Origin: Cystobasidiomycetes sp. EMM_F5
Taxonomy: Eukaryota
Length of the DNA stretch: 64,000 bases
Reading direction: 5' to 3'
NCBI GenBank assembly: GCA_051047955.1
Contig: JBPGPT010000001.1
Coordinates: 620,001 to 684,000 of the forward strand
Shown here piece after piece: positions 38,612 to 63,847 of this stretch; positions within the stretch are counted from its first letter, which is position 1; every line of letters begins with the position of its first letter. The position numbers were made by a program, and so were the translations under genes. The notes beneath the pieces are model-generated. The model saw only the letters and a program-made list of their open reading frames with translations, searched no databases and was not told the origin of the DNA.

Positions 38612-41364
38612 ATGGTGGGTAACATGGTCGACAATCACATTCTGCTTATCGACAACTACGATTCGTGGGTTCAGGGTAGCAGATTCGGAATGGCTTTCCA
38701 GGCTGACTCGAGCGGACATACCATTGCTGCTACAGCTTGTAAGCAGATCATTCTCGAGGCTGAATCGCAGTCTCATTAACACGTCATTCCAGCTCTTGGA
38801 ACGTATACCAGTTCCTTAGCCTCCAGGGCGCAAATGTGACGGTCGTCCGGTCTAGAGACAAGACGCTCGACGAGGTCAAGGAAGAATACCCAGATATTAC
38901 CCACCTCGTCATCTCCCCCGGCCCAGGACATCCACTGCGGGACTCAGGAATCAGCATACCCGCTATCAAGCATTATGCCGGCAAGATTCCAATCCTCGGC
39001 GTGTGCATGGGGCTGCAGTGCATTTATGCGGCCTACGGCGGGTCAGTCGACCGTGTAGGAGAGATTGTACATGGAAAGACCAGCAAGATTATACATGATG
39101 GCAAAGGAATGTTCAAAGACGTGCCGGAGGAGATTAAAGGAACTCGGTACCACTCGCTGGCTGGCTCGTTCTCAACCTTGCCGCAAGAATTGGAAGTATC
39201 ATGCAGGACGCCAAGAATCGGGCAGGTCTACGATGCAAAAAGAGCAGATGAAGGGATAGTCATGGGCATTAGACACAAGAAGCTCACGCTCGAGTCTGTG
39301 CAATACCACCCAGAATCAATTTTGTCTGATGCTGGACAAGTCATGCTTGCAAACTTCATGAAGCTCCGGGGAGGAAGCTGGGAAGAAAATGTTGGATTTG
39401 GACTGTCGGCGAGGGAGAAATCGAAGGAAAATGGGGTTCAGACGCCCACATCGAGCAAGAAAAACCCGTCTCCAGAAAGCGCTCCCACAATTCTTACGCG
39501 CATCTATGACCAACGAAGACAAGACGTGGAGACTGCAAAGAAGACGCCAGGATCATATCAGTCTGATCTGACAGCTCTTCTCGACTTACATATCGCACCC
39601 CCTCAAATATCGTTTTATGATCGCTTGTTACCGTCAGCGAACTCGCAGCCTTCTGGTTCAAAAAGCCAGTTGCATCCATCTTCTGGAGATGCTGCTCTTA
39701 TGGCTGAAGTTAAGCGGGCTTCTCCATCCAAGGGTGATATCCTTCCGGCCTCCTCACCCCTCACAGCAGCGACTATCGGATTGTCATATGCACAAGCTGG
39801 AGCATCTGTCATTTCGGTACTGACTGAGCCGACCTGGTTCAAAGGGACATTGAACGACATGCGTGCCGTCAGACAAGTTGTCTCGACACTTCCGCATCGA
39901 CCAGCAGTCCTTCGCAAAGACTTCATATTCGATACCTACCAGATTGACGAAGCCCGGCTGTACGGAGCCGATACAATCCTGCTCATCGTTGCTATGCTTG
40001 ATGATACGACACTCAAAAAACTGTATGATTACGCCCGATTTGTGCGGGGAATGGAACCGCTCGTCGAAGTAAACAATCCCGAAGAATTGCAGCGCGCGTT
40101 GGCTATCGGAGCAAAAGTTATCGGAGTCAACAATCGCAATCTGCACGATTTCAACGTCGATATGAGTACAACGTCGCGGATCGCCGAGGTCGTGAATCAG
40201 CAGCAGCAGCATCAGCAAACCAACGGCAGTCAAGCGGTCGATGATCGTAAAGTCATACTGTGTGCTTTATCGGGCATTACTGGACGAGACGACGTTGTCA
40301 GATATGTACAGCAGGGTGTTGGAGCGGTCCTTGTAGGAGAAGCGCTGATGCGTGCTGAAGATCAAGGAGCATTCGTGCGTACGCTACTCGGCATTGACGA
40401 AGCTACACCCCATAGCAAGCCAAAAACAAGACGAGCATCCCTTACTGCCCCACCCGATTCTTTCAGTCCGCCATCGGACGCTCCGACTGAGGAGACCGTT
40501 CCGACAAACATGCCAGCGGAGGCAAATTCATACAAGCCGCTCGTCAAGATCTGTGGTGTCAAGACGCCAGAGGCTGCTTTAGCTGCTGCTGAAGGGGGAG
40601 CAGATTTTGTTGGCTTGATCTTTGCACCCAAGAGTAAACGGTACGTCACTCCCGAACAGGCTCGGCGGGTTGTCGATGCCGTCAGGCAAAGGACGGCGTC
40701 GTTTCACGATAGACAGACAACAACTCACGGCAAAGCATCCACCATTGGCCAAAACGAAGATGATACATCAGTCTCTTCTGACTACTTTGAAAGTCAAGCT
40801 CGACGACTCAGTCACTCGCGCAGGAAACCGCTCTTCGTTGGCGTCTTCCAGAATGCGCCGCTTTCGACTATAGAAGAGGTTGCGGATACGGTACATCTGG
40901 ACGTCGTGCAGCTGCATGGATCGGAGCCTGCCGAGTGGTGCCAATTACTCAAAATCCCGACATTCAAAGCTTTCCATGTGGACGAATCACTAGCCGAAGA
41001 CGATCTGGACAAGACCTCTGGAGAGGGTGATGCAGCTACGAAACTTGCATTGCATGAAGCTGCTCGACCTGGATATCATAGCATACCCTTGCTTGACACC
41101 AAACTTTCAAAGGCTGCTGGCGGTCTGAGCGGTGGGGCAGGCAAAGTGTTTGATTGGCAGGTTGCGCGAAATCTGTGCCAGACTGACCGTCCAGGCCTGC
41201 CCATCATTCTTGCGGGAGGGTTGGAAGTCCACAATGTCGCTAACGCCGTCAAGATGGTCAGACCCTGGGCGTTGGACGTTAGCGGAGGAGTGGAGACCAA
41301 GGGCGAGAAGGACCTGGACAAGATCCGAGACTTCATAAGAGCGGCAAAAGGTGCCGTACCATAA
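38612..41364 (+). CDS. TRP1: Trifunctional tryptophan synthesis protein (GATase-IGPS-PRAI; TrpC type)
   Basis: LLIDNYDSFSWN (through a microexon), ISPGPG, LGVCMG, QYHPES, AEVKRASPSKG, LRKDFI, GVNNRNL, VKICG and LDVSGGVE. Confidence 0.98.
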
Positions 41365-53956: not shown

Positions 53957-55398
53957 CTAGAATAACTGAACTTGAGCGGGAGTATCGCTAGTCTCAGCAC
54001 AGTACGTGGCTGCATAGAGAAGATCGTAGAGTCCGTGTGCGTAAGCTGGTTCGTAAGCCGTCTGAGGTGCTGAGAAGGAGGAGACTACATCGTAATGGGG
54101 CGGTAAGGCGAATAACATATTCGAGGGCGCCTTTTCATACATCGGTATATGAAGCGAATCGAATGAGAGCGGATGGTACAGTTTGTAATCATTTGGGTAC
54201 GATGTCGCTAGCATGTACGGGTCGAAGGAGTCAATGTCGATCATCGAATCGAGCGGTCTTTGCTGGATGGCAGTCGGATAAAAACTGGGACAAGCTTGAA
54301 CAAACGATTGCGTATCATTAAGGAATGAGCGCGCGTGTAGTACTCGGAAAGCAGCATGATCGTTCAAAGACCCCTCGCAAAGCTTGTGCTGGTACTCCGC
54401 CCGTTCGAAACGAAAGTCGGGCATGTCGGAGATCGGAGCGAATGATACCGTGTTTGGCAGTTGCAGTTCTAGGACGGAATCGTAAACAGATGCAACTTCC
54501 AGCGGATGGAACGGGCCGTCGTCTGATGCATCGGTGGCTGTATGCTTCGCGGGATTTTCCGAAGAGGCAAAGGGACTGCCAGATTGACAAGGACAATCAG
54601 AGCTACAGACGTTGATTAGTGCATTGCCTGGCTGCCAAATGCTCTTGGAAGGGAAGCTATGGCAAGCATTAGACCATCACAGAGTTTTCCTGATACAAGA
54701 CTCACTCAGTCAGGTCAAGGAAGTCTTCTCCCGAATACGCAGAGAAGTCCTGATCGGCTGAGAACGAGTACCACGCTTGATTATCAGGAGGCGTTCGAGG
54801 CATGTCAGATGCAAGGCGAGGAGACGCGGTTCTCTCTGAGTCTGATGGTTCGACGGCTGATTGCTCAGACGACGTGAATGCCGTCATTTCGGCACTGCAA
54901 GCAAATCAAGATGGATGTTCAGCGCCGGAACACGGTAGAATCGCAACCCGTCGCCATTGAGGGGACATACGAAGCGACAATTTCAGCTGCAGACGTGACA
55001 CCGTCGGATACGGCGGCTGTAAAGGATGTGACTAGTTTGGCTTCATCCTGAATAGAGTCGGCGGTTCCTGCTGTTCGCGCATCTACTCGCGCTTTGGGCG
55101 CCTGGCTAGTTCGACCAGCAAGGCGTCGTCGTCTGTAAGAGAAATACCTTGATATTTGTACTCTCGTTCTATCGTGCTTTGAAGCTAGGTCCGTGATGCG
55201 CTCGGGTGTGAGGTAAGGGTTTGCTTTGTAAGCGGCTCTCAGAACCTCGCAGTCTACTACTGGCGGCTTTATACTGAGAAAATAGAGCAATGTAAAGATC
55301 AGTGAAGATGCAGGACAATGGAACTTTGAGGAGGTATCTAGAGGTGAGGAGGAGACTCAGTACCCGGTCAGTTTTGACGGTTTCTTTGCAGAGGGCAT
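53957..55398 (-). CDS. Atypical single-homeodomain protein, 4 exons
   Basis: MPSAKKPSKLTG|IKPPVVDCEVLRAAYKANPYLTPERITDLASKHDRTRVQISRYFSYRRRR. The downstream exons splice in frame into the acidic/aromatic ORF ending at 53957. Confidence 0.75.
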
Positions 55399-55799
55399 GA
55401 TGGATTGGGAGAAAGCGGGTGGCAAAACAGTCGGTTCTCCGTCAAGAGCTAAAGCAACGAAAATAAAGAATTAAAACATATTGAAACGCAAGCATTGAAG
55501 ATCTAATCGTACACAGCAGGAGAGCAGAACTAAGTCAAGTGCACACTTAGATACACGGTGAGGCTCGATAACAGCAAAGCTAGCGGGCTATCGATGCACG
55601 GAGGGGGAAACCAATAGAGCATGCGTATCATGGGAGATACTCAAGCAGATGATGTATACAGATCGCCAAACATCGCGTTATAGAAGAATTAAATGCCGAT
55701 AGTCGTCAAAGACGGGAACATAAAGAGTAACAAACGGTCATAGCAGGAAGGAAAGACATGACACGCCCTTCGAAGGAGCGGATGCCATACACATGCAGA

Positions 55800-58538
55800 T
55801 CAGGCAACGACCGGGATGTCGTCAGAACAGTGCGACGAGACGGCTTGCTTATGTGTCTCCTTGCCACCATCGGCCAGCGCAGGCAACTGGATCGTAAGGA
55901 CAGCGGGTGACGGCAACTCGTCATCGGCTGACGACAGGCCGTCTTTCGAATTTTCCGCCAGCATAAGTAGAGAGGAAGCAGAGTCGGAGAAGACCAATCC
56001 TTCGGAGTGAAGAGAGTAGGAATCGTCGTAGGCTAGCTCGGGAACTTGGACATCTTCGTTCGTATCGCTTGCGGAGTCAATGACGATTGCAGGGTAGACC
56101 GCGTCGGCAGATGAGGCGGCGCCGTCGAGGTCCATTTCTTGTTCCTCTTCATCGGCTTCCATGTCCTCCTCTTCTTCTTCTTCGACTTCAGACTCTTCGT
56201 CGACCACAGACTGCAACTCAGATTGCGCTCTACTACCGGCGTCAGAAGCATGTGTGGAAGCATGACCTGGCGTGCCGTTAGCATCCAAGGCAGCGGCAGT
56301 GAGCTTGTTGCCAGAGGCGCCCTTCTTCCTACCTCCTCGCGGCTTGCGATTGAGGCCATGACGAATTTTGATCTGGTAGCCAGTCTTCTTTCTCTCTCTG
56401 ACGAAATAATTGGAGACTTGTTCTGCGAAACGAATCAAAGTCAGTCCTAGGCACCACTAAAAAGCGGTACGTCGACACGACTTACTCTTTCCGAGACCAA
56501 GCTTGACTGCAAGCGCGTCGAGTACCGATGTAGGAGGGTGAGGGTTGGCGAGAAAAGCCAGGCGCAGCTCATCGCATGCAATTGTCGATTTGAGAGCTGC
56601 TTGTGCTTTACGCCTCTTCATCAAGACAATCTCTTCGACGTCGTATTCCGAGCTTGAACCATGCCCGCCCAGGTCATCGTCCGCACCAGAAAAGGCTGAT
56701 GAAGCCAAGCGAGTCATCGGTCCACTGCCCGGGATATTCGAAATCGATGCCGCATTGGCTGCAAAGTGCTTGATCTTTTCAAACTTGTCCTCGGGTCTAG
56801 TCGAGCCAAACAGGGACAGGGTGGATTGTTTGCCATCCTCGGATGCCTGCTCGCTTGCCGGCGCAGGGGGAGCTGGAGGTCGGGTAAACCACGTTCTAGC
56901 CCTCTTCCTCACAGGCTCAGCAGGGTATGTGGAATAGCCATAGCTAAAGCAATCTTGCTCTGGCATAGGAAACGGATTTCGGAGGAATTGCACAGTAGGC
57001 GATTCATACTTGGTCGATTGACGTCCAATATCATACGCTTGCAGTGTTTCTTCCTCATTGTTGGCATCCTGCGATGGAGACGAAACAGACGAGGACGAGG
57101 AAGCAGGGGAATAGTAGAGTTGCGGTGCGCCCAGAGCATCGTCTGAAGATATGCTTGCGTCTGCCCTGTGTCCTCCAGACGACGATTGGGGTAGATATAG
57201 GGGTGCCGAAAGCTGCGACGGCGACGATGAAAGTGGCACTGCCGCCGGACCAGCTCTTGCTCTCGCAGCAAAAAGCGACCGCGATGCTGCGAAATGGTCT
57301 ACGCCTGGCTGAGATGCATGCGAGCCGGCATACCGCGCACCGAGTCGCGAACGCACGATTCGGACTGGCGAAGATAGCGCTGCCAAAGACGACGACGCGT
57401 TATCATTACCCCTGGACGCGTCAAAGTGGTCCATGTCGGCGGCCGACCTGCGAGCGCGATGCAGCACAGGTCGCTGAGGAATGTTGGCAGGCTGTAGTTG
57501 TCCTTCTGCTCCAGTATTGGCGTGCTCGTCGTCAACTTCGACAATTGCTGGAGCTCTTGCAGCGCGTTTCGGACGCGCGATTGCTGCACTGTGAGACGCG
57601 CTCGTGCGCTGCAGCAATAAATTGGGAGGGAGCGAGCCTGAACCGTCCACAGAAGCATCGACACTGCGCTGCTGAAACTCCGACTCTCCACTGTCGAGAT
57701 AAACTCTGCTGTCCTTTGCGTTACTGCCTGTGCCTGATATTGTCGCGTGCCCGCTCAGCGATAATTCATTCGACGTGACTTGGCAGGCCGAGGCCTTTGC
57801 CGACGCAGACTTGCGATAGTCGTCGGGGTCGGACGATGCAGAAGAGGCGGCAGATCCAGACGCACCGACTGGAGTCTGCGTTCGCACGCGACGCGTAGGC
57901 AAGACGACGCCAGCCTTTCTACGCTCTCGCTCGAAGAAGTTGGACACCTGTGTGTTTGAAGAGCAAGTCAGTGTGCGCCCTGTAGAATTCCATGTTGCAG
58001 TGAGTTGCAAGACATGCCTGCTTCTTGTTCAGTCCCAGCTTATCTGCCAGAGCTCCCATGACCTTTCCGTCGGGATGAGAGTCCTGCAGAGCGGTAGAAG
58101 CAGCATGGTTGAGTTGTGAGTTTTTGAGATGGTGCAGAGTATATAGTTGCAATTGTTATTGTTGGGCAAGGAAAAGCGTGCCGTTTGGACCGTGCGTAGT
58201 TATAAGGTACCAAAAGCAAAGAAATTGAAGAGCGAGGCGGAAGATGGGAGAGTCGAGGGCAAAGAGAGCACACATGGTCAGCTTCTGCGTCGTCTGAGCG
58301 TGGGTCACCACTCGACTGCTCGTAGTCTACGCTATAAGCTTGCTTGCTTCCAGCCAACAGTGGCAAAGAAGGGGTCAATAGCCGTCTGCCGACGTGTATA
58401 CGACGACGAGGAATGGGATGTGCAGAGTGCAGTGCAGTGCAGTGCAGTACAGTGACGGGGATACTGCCTCACCTTTGCAAAGTATGCTTCCAACTCGATG
58501 CACGATACCGTCTTGCGGGAAGCCGGATCAAAGACCAT
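55800..58538 (-). CDS. Atypical double-homeodomain protein (about 738 aa), 4 exons
   Basis: Exons 58538-58473, 58083-58018, 57947-56486 and 56422-55800. HD-A is IELEAYFAKDSHPDGKVMGALADKLGLNKKQVSNFFERERRK. HD-B is DELRLAFLANPHPPTSVLDALAVKLGLGKKQVSNYFVRERKK. Acidic C-terminal tail. Confidence 0.8.
58426..58454 (+). repeat. (AGTGC)n pentanucleotide microsatellite in intron 1 of the double-homeodomain gene
   Basis: Four perfect AGTGC units followed by two degenerate units. Confidence 0.85.
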
Positions 58539-59762: not shown

Positions 59763-60372
59763 TCATTCGTCGTGCGCCGCTTTGCCCTTGCCTCCTCCAG
59801 ATTTGCCCTTTCCTCCAGGTCGGACACCCTCTTCCGAAGTCTTTGCGGGTAGCAATTCTTGGTGAATGCTGCGGGAGAAGCGCGTTAGAACTAGTCGAAA
59901 GGTAATAGAAAGATGGACTGACTTTGGCAAGACACCACCTTGGGAGATGGTAACGTGTCCGAGGAGCTTGTTGAGTTCCTCGTCGTTTCGGATGGCGAGT
60001 TGCAAGTGACGGGGAATGATACGCGACTTCTTGTTGTCACGGGCGGCTGTAACCAGAATCAGCGACTGGTGGGAGAAAACCAGATTACGCAGCTCACCGT
60101 TACCAGCCAACTCGAGGATCTCGGCCGCGAGGTATTCGAGGACAGCGGCAAGGTAGACTGCACAAGATGCCATTGTCAGCCATACTCGATCTAAAACCCG
60201 ATAATGTGCACACACCTGGTGCACCGGCACCGATACGTTGAGCGTAGTTGCCCTTCCTCAACATACGATGGATACGACCGACTGGGAATTGGAGACCAGC
60301 CTTTGACGATCTCGACTGCTGGGCCTTGGACGCATCTCCTGCCGCTGCTGCTTTTCCACCTTTTCCAGACAT
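59763..60372 (-). CDS. HTA1: Histone H2A, 4 exons
   Basis: [44 protein letters not shown] and [13 protein letters not shown]. Confidence 0.98.
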
Positions 60373-60483
60373 GGTTGATATGTAGAGTTACGGTGAGGGT
60401 GTTGAAGTTGAGGGTATTTGAATGCTTGGAGCGGTGTAAAGCAGAGTATGCCGTTTGTATTTGTACTTGAGCCCAACGTTGGA

Positions 60484-60585
60484 TAACAGCACGCAATGCA
60501 CCCTGCCTGTACTCGAGAATAGGGGCTTAGCAGCACGTATGTTTGCAGCACGCCAGCCGATCGAGATTTTTGGGCTAACAGCACG
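60484..60585. promoter_or_regulatory. Four-copy TWRCAGCACG element in the divergent H2A/H2B promoter
   Basis: CAGCACG at 60487, 60531, 60546 and 60579, preceded by TAA, TAG, TTG and TAA respectively. Confidence 0.6.
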
Positions 60586-60719
60586 TAGGCTTAGGTGGAC
60601 GATCTGAGCGAGCAACGCACGTTTAAAGCGCAGGCCCCCGTGACCTTCTCCTCTGTCCACAACCAAGTGCCTCCACCAACCCTCTGACACTCATCCGTCA
60701 ATCACCTTAATCAAATACA

Positions 60720-61282
60720 ATGGCACCCAAACCAGCATCCAAGGCTCCCGCGTCCACCGGCGGAAAGGCACCGGCGACTGGAGGCAAAGCAGCCAGTGAG
60801 TAGATGGAATTGTACTGCTCTTCTCCAGCTCCTGACGCGACCACGCAGAATCAACAGGCGGCAAGGCAGGAAAGAAGGCCACCAAAAAGACCTCTGCGTC
60901 AACCGGTGGTGATGCCGACAAGAAGAAGCGCAAGAAGAAGCGTACCGAGACGTACTCTACCTACATTTACAAGGTCCTCAAGCAGGTGCACCCCGATACC
61001 GGTATCTCCAACAAGGCCATGTTGATTCTGAAGTGAGCCCAAACAGATTTATCCCCTCACCTATACATATGCTGACATGAACGTATCTGCAGCTCCTTTG
61101 TCAACGATATTTTCGAGCGTATCGCGTCCGAGGCCTCCAAGCTCGCGTCATACAACAAGAAGTCTACCATTTCATCGCGAGAAATTCAAACTGCCGTCCG
61201 CCTCATCCTCCCTGGCGAACTTGCCAAGCACGCCATCTCAGAGGGCACCAAGGGTGTTACAAAGTACTCTTCCACCAAGTAG
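60720..61282 (+). CDS. HTB1: Histone H2B, 3 exons
   Basis: [25 protein letters not shown] and [26 protein letters not shown]. Confidence 0.98.
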
Positions 61283-61645: not shown

Positions 61646-62770
61646 ATGAACAACGTCCCGGGTGGACTGGTGCCGAAGGCGAGCGACTCCAGCCAACACA
61701 AGCTGAAGAGGCGGTTATCTGATGGTGAGAACACTTTTACTCTCAAACACCAAGCATGTTACTGATGCATCGCCTGATTCTGCCGTCTGTTCTCTCGTCG
61801 CACTGATTGCATATGCTTTCGCGTAAACAGCGTCAACAGACTCGACAACTGCTCCATCGACGAAGAAGCCAAAGAAAGCAGCTGGGTTGTTACCGGACGG
61901 CAGCAAGCCTCTATCGTCGTCAACGTCCACAAAAGATAAAGATATCGCTGCAGCTCTTTTATCATCTTCCAAAGATGGCACAACGAAACAGCCAAACAAG
62001 GCTGCGCGGTTCAAGAGTGAGTATCAACTAAACAGATACCTGCCTGACCTTGCATTGTTACTCACCTGTTTGCCTTATTGTGTGTCATTGCCGCCGCAGC
62101 CGAAACACCCATAGATTACGACGTACAATGCGGTGTACTCAATGAAGATGATTTGCCATGCCGCAGGTCGTTGACATGCAAGACGCATGGCATGGGAGCA
62201 AAGCGAGCAGTCCAAGGGCGTTCAAAATCATTCGATACCGTTCTTGTCGAGTTTCAAAAGACGAAAGAAGCCAAAAAGGCCAAGCAGCGAGCAGAGAATG
62301 AACTTCGAGAGAAGCAACTTGCGGAATCTTCTGCCAATGGTACTAGCGCACCTGTTGCTGGTGGATCAAAATCGAAAGGAAGTGGTGGTGGTGGAAGCGG
62401 GACGAAATCTGCTGCTGGCGCAGTTGCTGGAGAGCCTTCTTCCGGCAAAAAGAAGAAGACGGGAGAGGGCAAGAGTAGCAAAAACAAGGCTGCTGCGCGT
62501 AACAAAGCAGATCTAATATTGGGCGAAGTCGACGATCCGCCTGTGGCGGCATTGGTCGACAGCTACTCTGCCAATAATATAGAAGAGGAGGCACCGGACA
62601 GCGAAGACGAGGTCGATCAACTGCTTCTTGCAGTCTTGCATACCCGGCCAGAACCTCTGGCTACTCATTCTTTCCCCTCGTATATCCGCAATACGTCAAA
62701 GGTTACAAGATATCGCGATACGTTTGAGACAGCCTTTACGGGACGGACACTATCCTCTGCAGCAAGCTGA
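61646..62770 (+). CDS. SGF73: SAGA subunit Sgf73/ataxin-7 (SCA7 domain); start uncertain
   Basis: PIDYDVQCGVLNEDDLPCRRSLTCKTHGMGAKRAVQGRSKSFD (SCA7 zinc finger) and a C-terminal DSEDEV...PEPLA segment. Confidence 0.88.
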
Positions 62771-62937: not shown

Positions 62938-63847
62938 TCAAGCTCTAGTATACTTTCGAACTTCGCTTCCACCTGTTCCCAGACCTCGTCTTTCGGCCAT
63001 TCAGCAGTAATCTGAATCACTCAACTCAGTATTCCGCGAATTGCTTTGATTTGCTCAGACCGACCTCGATGATATTGCCCTCCAATCTGTATCGCTTGAC
63101 AATGGCTTCAGAGTCTTTCGTAAACTTGGCCCAGGCAGCTTTTGCTGTTTCTCGCGCATCTCCTTCTTTCACCCTCGCTAAGGCTTTGTCTTGGTCGAGG
63201 TCAAGGAAGATCACAAGGAGGACCCGAACGACCTGAATCCAAAGATGATTAAAACGAAGTGGGTATGATAATCTCGCAACAAACCCACCTCCTTTTCGAA
63301 GGCTTGTGATTCTGAGAGTGTTACGGGAAAGCCTTCGACGATGAGACGTGGCTTTTGCTGTCCAGTGTTGCTTGATATACGATCTTGCAGCTGTTGTTTT
63401 AGATTGTCCGCACCTGAACGATAGTTCATCATGAGCTTGTCATTGGTAAGACCGAACGACTTACTCTGAAGATGCTCCAGCCCGAAGCGCTCGACAATAT
63501 TTCGTATTTGCGTACTCTTCCCAGATGCTGGTCCACCTTTTACGACCGGTCAGTTTTGACCCGGGATTCTAGAAATTTGATTTGTAAATACCTATCACGC
63601 AAACGAGGCCAACTTCGTTCTTGGTGAATGCTGGATTTGCTCCCTTTGATGAAGGTGAGTCTGCTCGAAGCGGAGTCGCAAAGTATAGGCCTGTTGCGGC
63701 TAACAGCAAGCCAATCGCACCGAAAGTGAGGGGTCTTCGCCTTTGCTTCAACGAAGCAGAGAATATGCTGGTACTAGAAGAATAATATCGTGACGATTGG
63801 AATGCCGAGCGGGGCAATATACGATGGGGATGTAAGCGTGATGTCAT
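62938..63847 (-). CDS. Adenylate/UMP-CMP kinase-like protein with presequence and TM; degenerate (an alternative start is possible up to 63928)
   Basis: Arg/Ser-rich presequence, TM LTFGAIGLLLAATGLYF, P-loop VIGGPASGKST, LIVEGFP, VIFLD and ITAEWPKDEVW. Confidence 0.75.

Follow-up and report, generated by a model that had tools for sequence, protein, structure and literature searches.

A 64,000-nucleotide stretch from Cystobasidiomycetes sp. EMM_F5 (GenBank assembly GCA_051047955.1, contig JBPGPT010000001.1, positions 620,001 to 684,000 of the forward strand; hereafter the window, numbered from its first letter) contains two adjacent genes, A and B, both on the minus strand and together spanning 53957-58538, with gene B directly downstream of gene A. 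Gene A encodes two homeodomains, HD-A1 and HD-A2, and gene B a single one, HD-B. By sequence and by predicted fold all three are homeodomains, and the asparagine at position 51 is missing from each of them. Within the homeodomain superfamily the gene pair is a variant that is new, has no name and is narrow in its distribution; it is no new kind of system. A sequence-only reading of the window had proposed two adjacent same-strand genes with three homeodomains at this place, and the sequence together with the splice models bears this out.

Homeodomain positions were assigned from the Pfam alignment (profile positions 13-54), from alignments to homeodomains in the PDB and from the helix boundaries of AlphaFold models. 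On this numbering HD-A1 (57900..58538, minus strand, as for all features of the two genes below) occupies residues 1-60 of the gene A protein, position 1 being the start methionine; HD-A2 (56370..56612) occupies residues 490-549 of the same protein, and HD-B (55108..55377) residues 8-67 of the gene B protein. The recognition helices are QVSNFFERERRKAG in HD-A1 (58020-57909), QVSNYFVRERKKTGYQIKIRHGLNRK in HD-A2 (56420-56343), after which comes a basic stretch, KPRGGRKKG (56345-56319), and QISRYFSYRRRRLAG in HD-B (55158-55114), reading QVSNFFERER, QVSNYFVRER and QISRYFSYRR, respectively. The motifs TVSC, TIAC and VVDC (the last at 55260-55249) take up positions 10-13 of HD-A1, HD-A2 and HD-B. 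Both the helices and these three hydrophobic-x-Cys motifs are as they were first read.

The two gene A domains are split by introns. Intron 1 divides HD-A1 after position 22 and intron 2 divides it between positions 44 and 45; both gene A domains are interrupted at the Q44/V45 boundary, the break in HD-A2 falling in the codon just before Q44. The Q that precedes VSN in the genomic frame, which the sequence-only reading had taken as part of the helix, is the CAG of the splice acceptor, and the real Q44 is supplied by the upstream exon; the helix as read is nevertheless correct. HD-B lies in a single exon, with helices 1-3 all in exon 2 (55272-55108) and no intron at 44/45. A tblastn search with HD-A2 across the 64-kb window found no fourth homeodomain-like site.

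Position 48 is F in HD-A1 and Y in HD-A2 and HD-B; position 51 is R, R and Y; F49 and R53 are common to all three. The replacement of W48 and N51 and the retention of F49 and R53, claimed earlier from the letters, hold under the Pfam, PDB and AlphaFold numbering. The remaining diagnostic positions are L16 in all three domains, F, F and Y at position 20, M, L and I at position 31, E, V and S at position 50, and E, E and R at position 52 (HD-A1, HD-A2 and HD-B, in that order). The hydrophobic core of a homeodomain (L16, F20, W48 or F/Y, F49) is present in each, and the basic N-terminal arm marked by R5 is present in none, position 5 being P, A and G and position 3 F, A and L. Extant homeodomains carry Asn at position 51 almost without exception, and this residue specifies adenine at base 3 (PMC3460184); R5 occurs in 99 of 106 fly homeodomains according to PMC4901127, where the change of W48 to F or Y is given as an accepted conservative substitution. 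With that substitution set aside, the deviations that are truly unusual come down to the loss of N51 and the loss of the basic arm residues; of the two replacements that had been singled out as atypical, the one at position 51 retains that standing and the one at position 48 does not.

The net charge is +3 for HD-A1, +7 for HD-A2 and +9 for HD-B, the latter two having basic flanks and keeping K/R55 alongside R53. The spacing between helix 1 and helix 2 is of the 60-residue type throughout, with a canonical interval from F/Y20 to P26. The loop extension of three residues that defines the TALE (three-amino-acid loop extension) homeodomains is absent, helix 1 being predicted to end at position 22 and helix 2 to start at position 28 in all three; the non-TALE spacing proposed earlier is borne out by residue spacing and predicted helices alike.

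Homeodomain identity was examined with the Pfam Homeodomain profile (PF00046, curated cut-off 22.9 bits) on spliced orthologues of gene A. P0001 and P0028 scored 58.1 and 61.0 bits, in two stretches each, P0010 scored 39.5 bits and P0011 24.7 bits; the match to the HD-A1 equivalent of P0001 covers residues 14-55. The Homeobox_KN profile gave 38.5 bits for P0001 (whole protein, two stretches, the best stretch being the HD-A2 equivalent) and 36.4 bits for P0028, and was also passed by P0010.

An AlphaFold model of P0001, computed with a 21-row family alignment, is mostly disordered (mean predicted local distance difference test score, pLDDT, 49.6) with two confident three-helix modules at residues 13-55 and 424-487 (pLDDT 72-87). 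The predicted helices of the first domain are 13-22, 28-38 and 42-55 (pLDDT 72-87) and those of the second 424-454, 460-470 and 474-487 (pLDDT 73-86). The 66-residue gene B model (pLDDT 72.8) has helices at residues 5-17, 23-33 and 37-53, equivalent to homeodomain positions 10-22, 28-38 and 42-58. The predicted models of both P0001 domains and of gene B have the three-helix homeodomain fold. In Foldseek searches the matches listed for P0001 were homeodomains (engrailed, aristaless, Msx-1, Nanog, Exd and others) with probabilities of 0.63-0.99, most of them at least 0.9, and a root-mean-square deviation of about 2 A over 42-49 columns for most matches listed. The matches listed for gene B were also homeodomains, with probabilities of 0.89-1.00, most of them 1.00. 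VIA-align, which is independent of Foldseek, placed the gene B model at Z 9.0 to engrailed (1.4 A over 53 residues), with homeodomain entries at Z 9.0-7.6 and continuing to about Z 6. The homeodomain fold that the sequence-only reading needed is thus what the structural comparison of P0001 and HD-B predicts.

To delimit the family, a profile built from gene A together with its first hits was used in an exhaustive HMMER search of 1,835,955,588 representative proteins. It returned 23 sequences at E <= 1e-3, of which 18 had E <= 1e-10 and 12 had E <= 1e-30; the hits include the window's own last exon (P0009), and many others are exon-sized fragments. At the 50% level, approximately 13 clusters include the helix 1-2 region of HD-A2, and the gene A family therefore spans a fair number of lineages. 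No functional name was attached to any of the 14 family clusters looked up (90%-identity clusters of the hits), the sole label being 'hypothetical protein', and all 14 derive from Logan, ENA or JGI assemblies; annotated relatives of gene A may exist outside the clusters read. Literature searches, which did not take in the main fungal homeodomain review, found no account of a homeobox family in fungi that has two homeodomains or lacks N51. An Atlas search with P0001 was uninformative (best scores 0.75-0.76), and a metagenome scan with the gene A alignment gave 199 pattern matches with no relative confirmed. The suggestion of an undescribed, narrowly distributed family thus stands for gene A, which by its sequence relationships belongs to a narrow and unnamed but conserved family within the homeodomain superfamily.

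Conservation within this family is concentrated in a few elements. Cys13 is present in 15/15 homeodomain rows from outside the window, and a family hidden Markov model (HMM) built without window sequences still gives HD-A2 75.8 bits. QVSNFFERER and QVSNYFVRER are invariant in every orthologue row that holds them, with the exception of P0027, and R51 is present in every recovered helix. In P0027, a 51-residue fragment, position 48 of the HD1-type helix is Y and not F (QVSNYFERERRK); this is the sole recognition-helix variant seen in the family. The N-terminus of gene A is conserved between species (P0001, P0028).

HD-A1 and HD-A2 are identical at 27/51 positions without gaps, have the intron at 44/45 in common, and both occur in P0001 and P0028, two orthologues with an overall identity of 37%. 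On these grounds the two domains are clearly paralogues of ancient origin that arose by an internal duplication, one that is old and neither recent nor local. The earlier suggestion that all three domains stem from local duplication of one ancestor is upheld for the duplication within gene A and is weak for gene B.

Between the two domains gene A carries two linker motifs, ESPTVQFLRNPFP (57005-56967; family form ESPTVQFL[KR]NPFP) and RKRARTWF (56909-56886; family form RKRAR.WF). Both are found in 11/11 non-redundant orthologue rows that cover the region, separated by a variable spacer of roughly 15-60 residues, and a short helix is predicted by AlphaFold at the first of them (pLDDT 69-83). The motifs recall homeodomain positions 20-26 and 48-49 and contain an NPF triplet. 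A relic third homeodomain (FL[KR]NPFP ... RKRAR.WF) was considered here and rejected: hhalign aligned 8 columns at a probability of 8.8%, and AlphaFold predicts one short helix. Following HD-A2, the protein contains an acidic tail of E/D residues (56189-56130), then VPELAYDD (56045-56022; family form DDVPELxYDD) and SSLLMLA (55976-55956; family form SSL[LM]MLA), and ends in IPVVA (55817-55803). The acidic tail and the C-terminal motifs (55803..56189) are conserved in P0001, P0004, P0011, P0019 and others.

We hold, at about even confidence and from sequence features, that gene A encodes a nuclear regulator. In its layout HD-A1 stands at the extreme N-terminus and HD-A2 some 490 residues further in; the linker between them is disordered and contains short conserved motifs, and the basic stretch and then the acidic tail follow HD-A2. 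HD-A2, with its charge of +7 and basic flanks, would still bind nucleic acid with a non-canonical, non-TAAT specificity; HD-A1 (+3, E50, E52) would serve as an auxiliary or protein-contact module; and the acidic tail would be the activation region. Since N51, R3/R5 and R31 are missing, the classical mode of reading the TAAT core is closed to the gene A homeodomains. In all three homeodomains the fold is intact and R53 and K/R55, which contact the backbone, are retained, but the classical base-reading set is lost. The nuclear role, DNA binding and activation, like the origin of gene B, are what we infer.

The main competing explanation, possible though somewhat unlikely in our judgement, is that the three homeodomains no longer bind DNA and act as protein-protein modules of the HOPX or ZHX/Homez type, with gene A as a scaffold or co-regulator. 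HOPX is not known to bind DNA, and ZHX domains dimerise. This explanation would account for the loss of N51 from all three domains, for positions 3, 5 and 31 never being basic, and for the low charge and paired glutamates of HD-A1; moreover, one of the best sequence matches of gene B in the PDB (15.3 bits) is a ZHX3 homeodomain with E aligned to position 51, and HOP, ZHX and Homez domains occur among the structural matches. However, the charge of HD-A2 and HD-B is strongly basic, as are their flanks, and both retain R53 and K/R55. The recognition helix, which differs in only one orthologue row, fits a DNA interface and a protein interface alike.

The signature Q44-V-S-N-[FY]-F-x-R51-E-R53 together with Cys13 could define a new class of fungal homeodomain that binds nucleic acid without Asn51. 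We put this forward tentatively and regard it as rather doubtful; on this view Arg51 would, for example, read guanine, Glu50 and Glu52 would position Arg51 or read cytosine, a GC-containing core would replace TAAT, the two domains would read a bipartite site, and gene B would be a young offshoot with a Y51 variant.

The gene models underlying these assignments are as follows. Gene A (55800..58538) has exons at 58538-58473, 58083-58018, 57947-56486 and 56422-55800, with the stop codon at 55802-55800, and encodes 738 residues. Its introns, at 58472-58084 (389 nt), 58017-57948 (70 nt) and 56485-56423 (63 nt), are GT-AG except for the second. A pentanucleotide microsatellite of about six GTGCA units (plus strand) lies at approximately 58420-58455, within the 389-nt first intron. 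Gene B (53957..55398) has exons at 55398-55364, 55273-54971, 54894-54706 and 54602-53957, with the stop codon at 53959-53957, and encodes 390 residues; its introns of 90, 76 and 103 nt are all GT-AG. A single gene with three homeodomains was ruled out by the C-terminal end of gene A, which is conserved in the orthologues, and genes A and B are therefore separate.

The joins rest on splice signals, codon usage and, for gene A only, orthologues with contiguous peptides. The peptides across the gene A joins are contiguous in P0001, P0028, P0010 and P0011, and the orthologue fragments P0002, P0004 and P0012 read through an intron at exactly the join sites of gene A. The codon log-likelihood is above zero in the model frame only, for exons 1-4 of gene A and exons 2-4 of gene B, the latter at 0.11-0.22 per codon, the level of gene A and of the housekeeping genes; it is negative in all six frames for intron 1, for the spacer between the genes and for the DNA downstream of gene B. 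Intron 2 of gene A, inside HD-A1, begins with GCATGT and ends with CAG in the window sequence (GC-AG), and leaving these 70 nt unspliced would make gene A stop after 77 codons. The sole in-frame option with a GT donor, a 34-nt intron with a 12-residue insert in the domain, was rejected, and GC-AG was preferred because it reproduces the orthologous peptide. The unspliced orthologue fragments P0002 and P0012 have V after KKQ, which implies a GT donor at the HD-A1 intron there. In this fungus the intron would be either a functional GC-AG intron or the product of a lineage-specific splice-site change.

Several points weigh against the reading set out so far. For gene A, the Pfam and folding results were obtained on orthologues standing in for the window protein, whose homeodomains are intron-split, and the loss of N51, R5 and R31 and the two glutamates in the HD-A1 helix argue against any DNA binding. 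The exon joins, the GC-AG intron and the short first exon of gene B are models only. The fold of gene B was predicted with gene A-type homeodomains as its sole alignment rows. The Foldseek E-values are weak (best 0.14 for P0001 and 0.086 for gene B) because the domain is short. The gene B exon scores 22.0 bits (E 1.4e-4) with the Pfam Homeodomain profile, borderline and just under the cut-off, so that the profile check to which the sequence-only reading had been put succeeds for the spliced orthologues of gene A and narrowly fails for gene B.

The evidence for kinship between gene B and gene A is thin. HD-B is identical to HD-A2 at 15/51 and to HD-A1 at 12/51 positions. BLASTP of gene B against the P0001 domains gave 33.5 bits for the HD-A2 type (37% identity over 49 residues) and 30.8 bits for the other, and tblastn with HD-A2 within the window reached the gene B locus at E 1.1e-4, a similarity beyond what chance would give. 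With phmmer, HD-B scored 16-21 bits to homeodomains of the gene A family (18.7 to the window's HD-A2 and 8.6 to its HD-A1), compared with 16.0 bits to human SIX1, 15.3 to ZHX3 and 14.6 to engrailed-2, and is thus hardly nearer to gene A's homeodomains than to unrelated solved ones. Scored with the family HMM from which window sequences were excluded, gene B reaches 13.0 bits across 15 residues of helix 1; this exceeds all 1000 shuffles (best 7.6) and is under the 22 bits of the generic Pfam profile. Word-seeded searches recovered no homologue of gene B among longer proteins (806 candidates) or among proteins near its own length (8 candidates), a metagenome scan with the gene B exon gave 478 pattern matches with no relative confirmed, and the C-terminal exon had no usable match in the Atlas. 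The orphan status of gene B is weakly established, since these searches were word-seeded and the exhaustive HMMER run was made for gene A only. The shared Cys13, the aromatic residue at position 48, the loss of N51 and the adjacency of the genes nonetheless make a common origin of gene B with the gene A homeodomains plausible.

The lack of recovered relatives, the sub-threshold Pfam score and the absence of an in-frame ATG from the homeodomain exon, which requires a 35-nt first exon with a GTACTG donor, could also mean that gene B is non-functional, an incomplete copy of a homeobox exon that is decaying or wrongly modelled, and that only gene A is real. We consider this improbable: splicing of GT-AG introns of 76-103 nt brings all four exons together in frame, coding signal in exons 2-4 is confined to the model frame and the flanking non-coding DNA is negative, and the core residues L16, Y20, F49 and R53 are intact. 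In our reading gene B is a separate, probably lineage-restricted gene with a single homeodomain, and may descend from the same stock as gene A.

Two homeobox genes side by side in a probably basidiomycete genome raise the question of mating type, and the sequence-only reading had offered a heavily remodelled derivative of the HD1/HD2 locus as one explanation. This adjacency is the sole support for it. Basidiomycete mating-type HD1/HD2 genes normally form a divergent pair of a TALE and a non-TALE gene. Here both genes are on the same strand, and neither has the TALE loop. Upstream of gene A, instead of a divergent partner, the intervals 59766-61279 and 62048-62767 contain a divergent pair of histone genes, H2A (minus) and H2B (plus), directly next to gene A, and beyond it a gene with an SCA7 domain (Sgf73-like); an adenylate-kinase-like open reading frame (63214-63549, minus) also follows; the H2A-H2B-SGF73 neighbourhood named earlier is confirmed. 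Among the open reading frames upstream of gene A there is no homeobox frame or divergent partner.

Further features of the locus are equally unlike mating type. The first homeodomain of gene A starts at residue 1 and that of gene B at residue 8, leaving no room for the variable N-terminal domain of dimerisation and specificity, and the N-terminus and helices of gene A are conserved between species and not hypervariable. The rest of the window is housekeeping (an HCO3 transporter, a TRAPPC11-like gene, topoisomerase I, the TrpC-type gene, an importin-like HEAT gene and Dbf4). The trifunctional TrpC-type gene (38764-41361, plus strand) is a single 866-residue open reading frame with GATase, IGPS and PRAI domains and is the clearest fungal marker in the window. 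Every mating-type feature that could be tested failed; the layout is, as had been noted, unlike that of a mating-type pair, neither gene is a mating-type homeodomain gene, and a remodelled mating-type origin is extremely improbable.

No DNA-reading residue of homeodomains is more constant than Asn51, and models of recognition in this family take its presence for granted. The gene A family keeps two R51 homeodomains, with recognition helices that differ in only one of the sequences recovered from lineages otherwise less than 50% identical, and so offers a natural test case of a homeodomain scaffold that reads DNA in another way, or of a homeodomain retained for a non-DNA role in fungi. The fungal homeobox repertoire usually comprises fewer than a dozen genes (PMC4901127), and gene A is an unnamed addition to this small repertoire. 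The locus also illustrates that homeobox genes lying side by side in a fungal genome are not necessarily of the mating type. In practical terms its consequence stays modest until a function or a binding site comes to light.

Among the closest known systems are typical non-TALE homeodomain transcription factors (PF00046). The three-helix fold with canonical boundaries, L16, F/Y20, Q44, an aromatic residue at 48, F49, R53 and K/R55 are shared with them, as is the intron at 44/45 in both gene A domains, and the spliced orthologues pass the Pfam cut-off. The differences are R, R or Y at position 51, the absence of R3, R5 and R31, E, V or S at position 50, E52 in gene A, the fixed Cys13, and a gene A protein that begins at homeodomain position 1. 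With the basidiomycete mating-type HD1/HD2 genes of the bE/bW type, the likeness is that of two adjacent homeobox genes in a fungal genome, whereas the two genes described here share a strand, are both non-TALE, lack an N-terminal variable domain and lie among housekeeping genes, with gene A conserved in sequence across species.

A gene A orthologue finds its best PDB sequence matches (16.3 bits, E 0.038) in TALE homeodomains of the PBC type, Extradenticle and PBX1. These have NP[HY]P ahead of helix 2 and QVSN at positions 44-47 in common with gene A, and the Homeobox_KN profile is passed by P0001, P0028 and P0010. However, gene A is without the three-residue loop, the alignment to Homeobox_KN covers only profile positions 6-39, after the extension, and Extradenticle and PBX1 have W48 and N51 where gene A has F/Y48 and R51.

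The vertebrate multi-homeodomain and N51-less homeodomain proteins (ZHX1-3, Homez, HOPX, and DUX4 as a double-homeodomain protein) offer a parallel to gene A, with more than one homeodomain in a polypeptide, and a ZHX3 homeodomain is likewise without N51; the structural matches listed include domains of ZHX, Homez, HOP and DUX4. ZHX proteins combine C2H2 zinc fingers with several homeodomains, and Homez combines a leucine zipper with several homeodomains. In contrast, Homeodomain and Homeobox_KN are the only Pfam families above cut-off in the gene A orthologues P0001, P0010, P0028 and P0011, with neither zinc fingers nor a leucine zipper found by Pfam in these four proteins. Gene A is moreover fungal, its homeodomains are separated by about 430 disordered residues, and the sequence similarity of 15-16 bits is at the general level between homeodomains. 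The relation of gene A to the vertebrate multi-homeodomain proteins is one of resemblance in kind, and not of membership.

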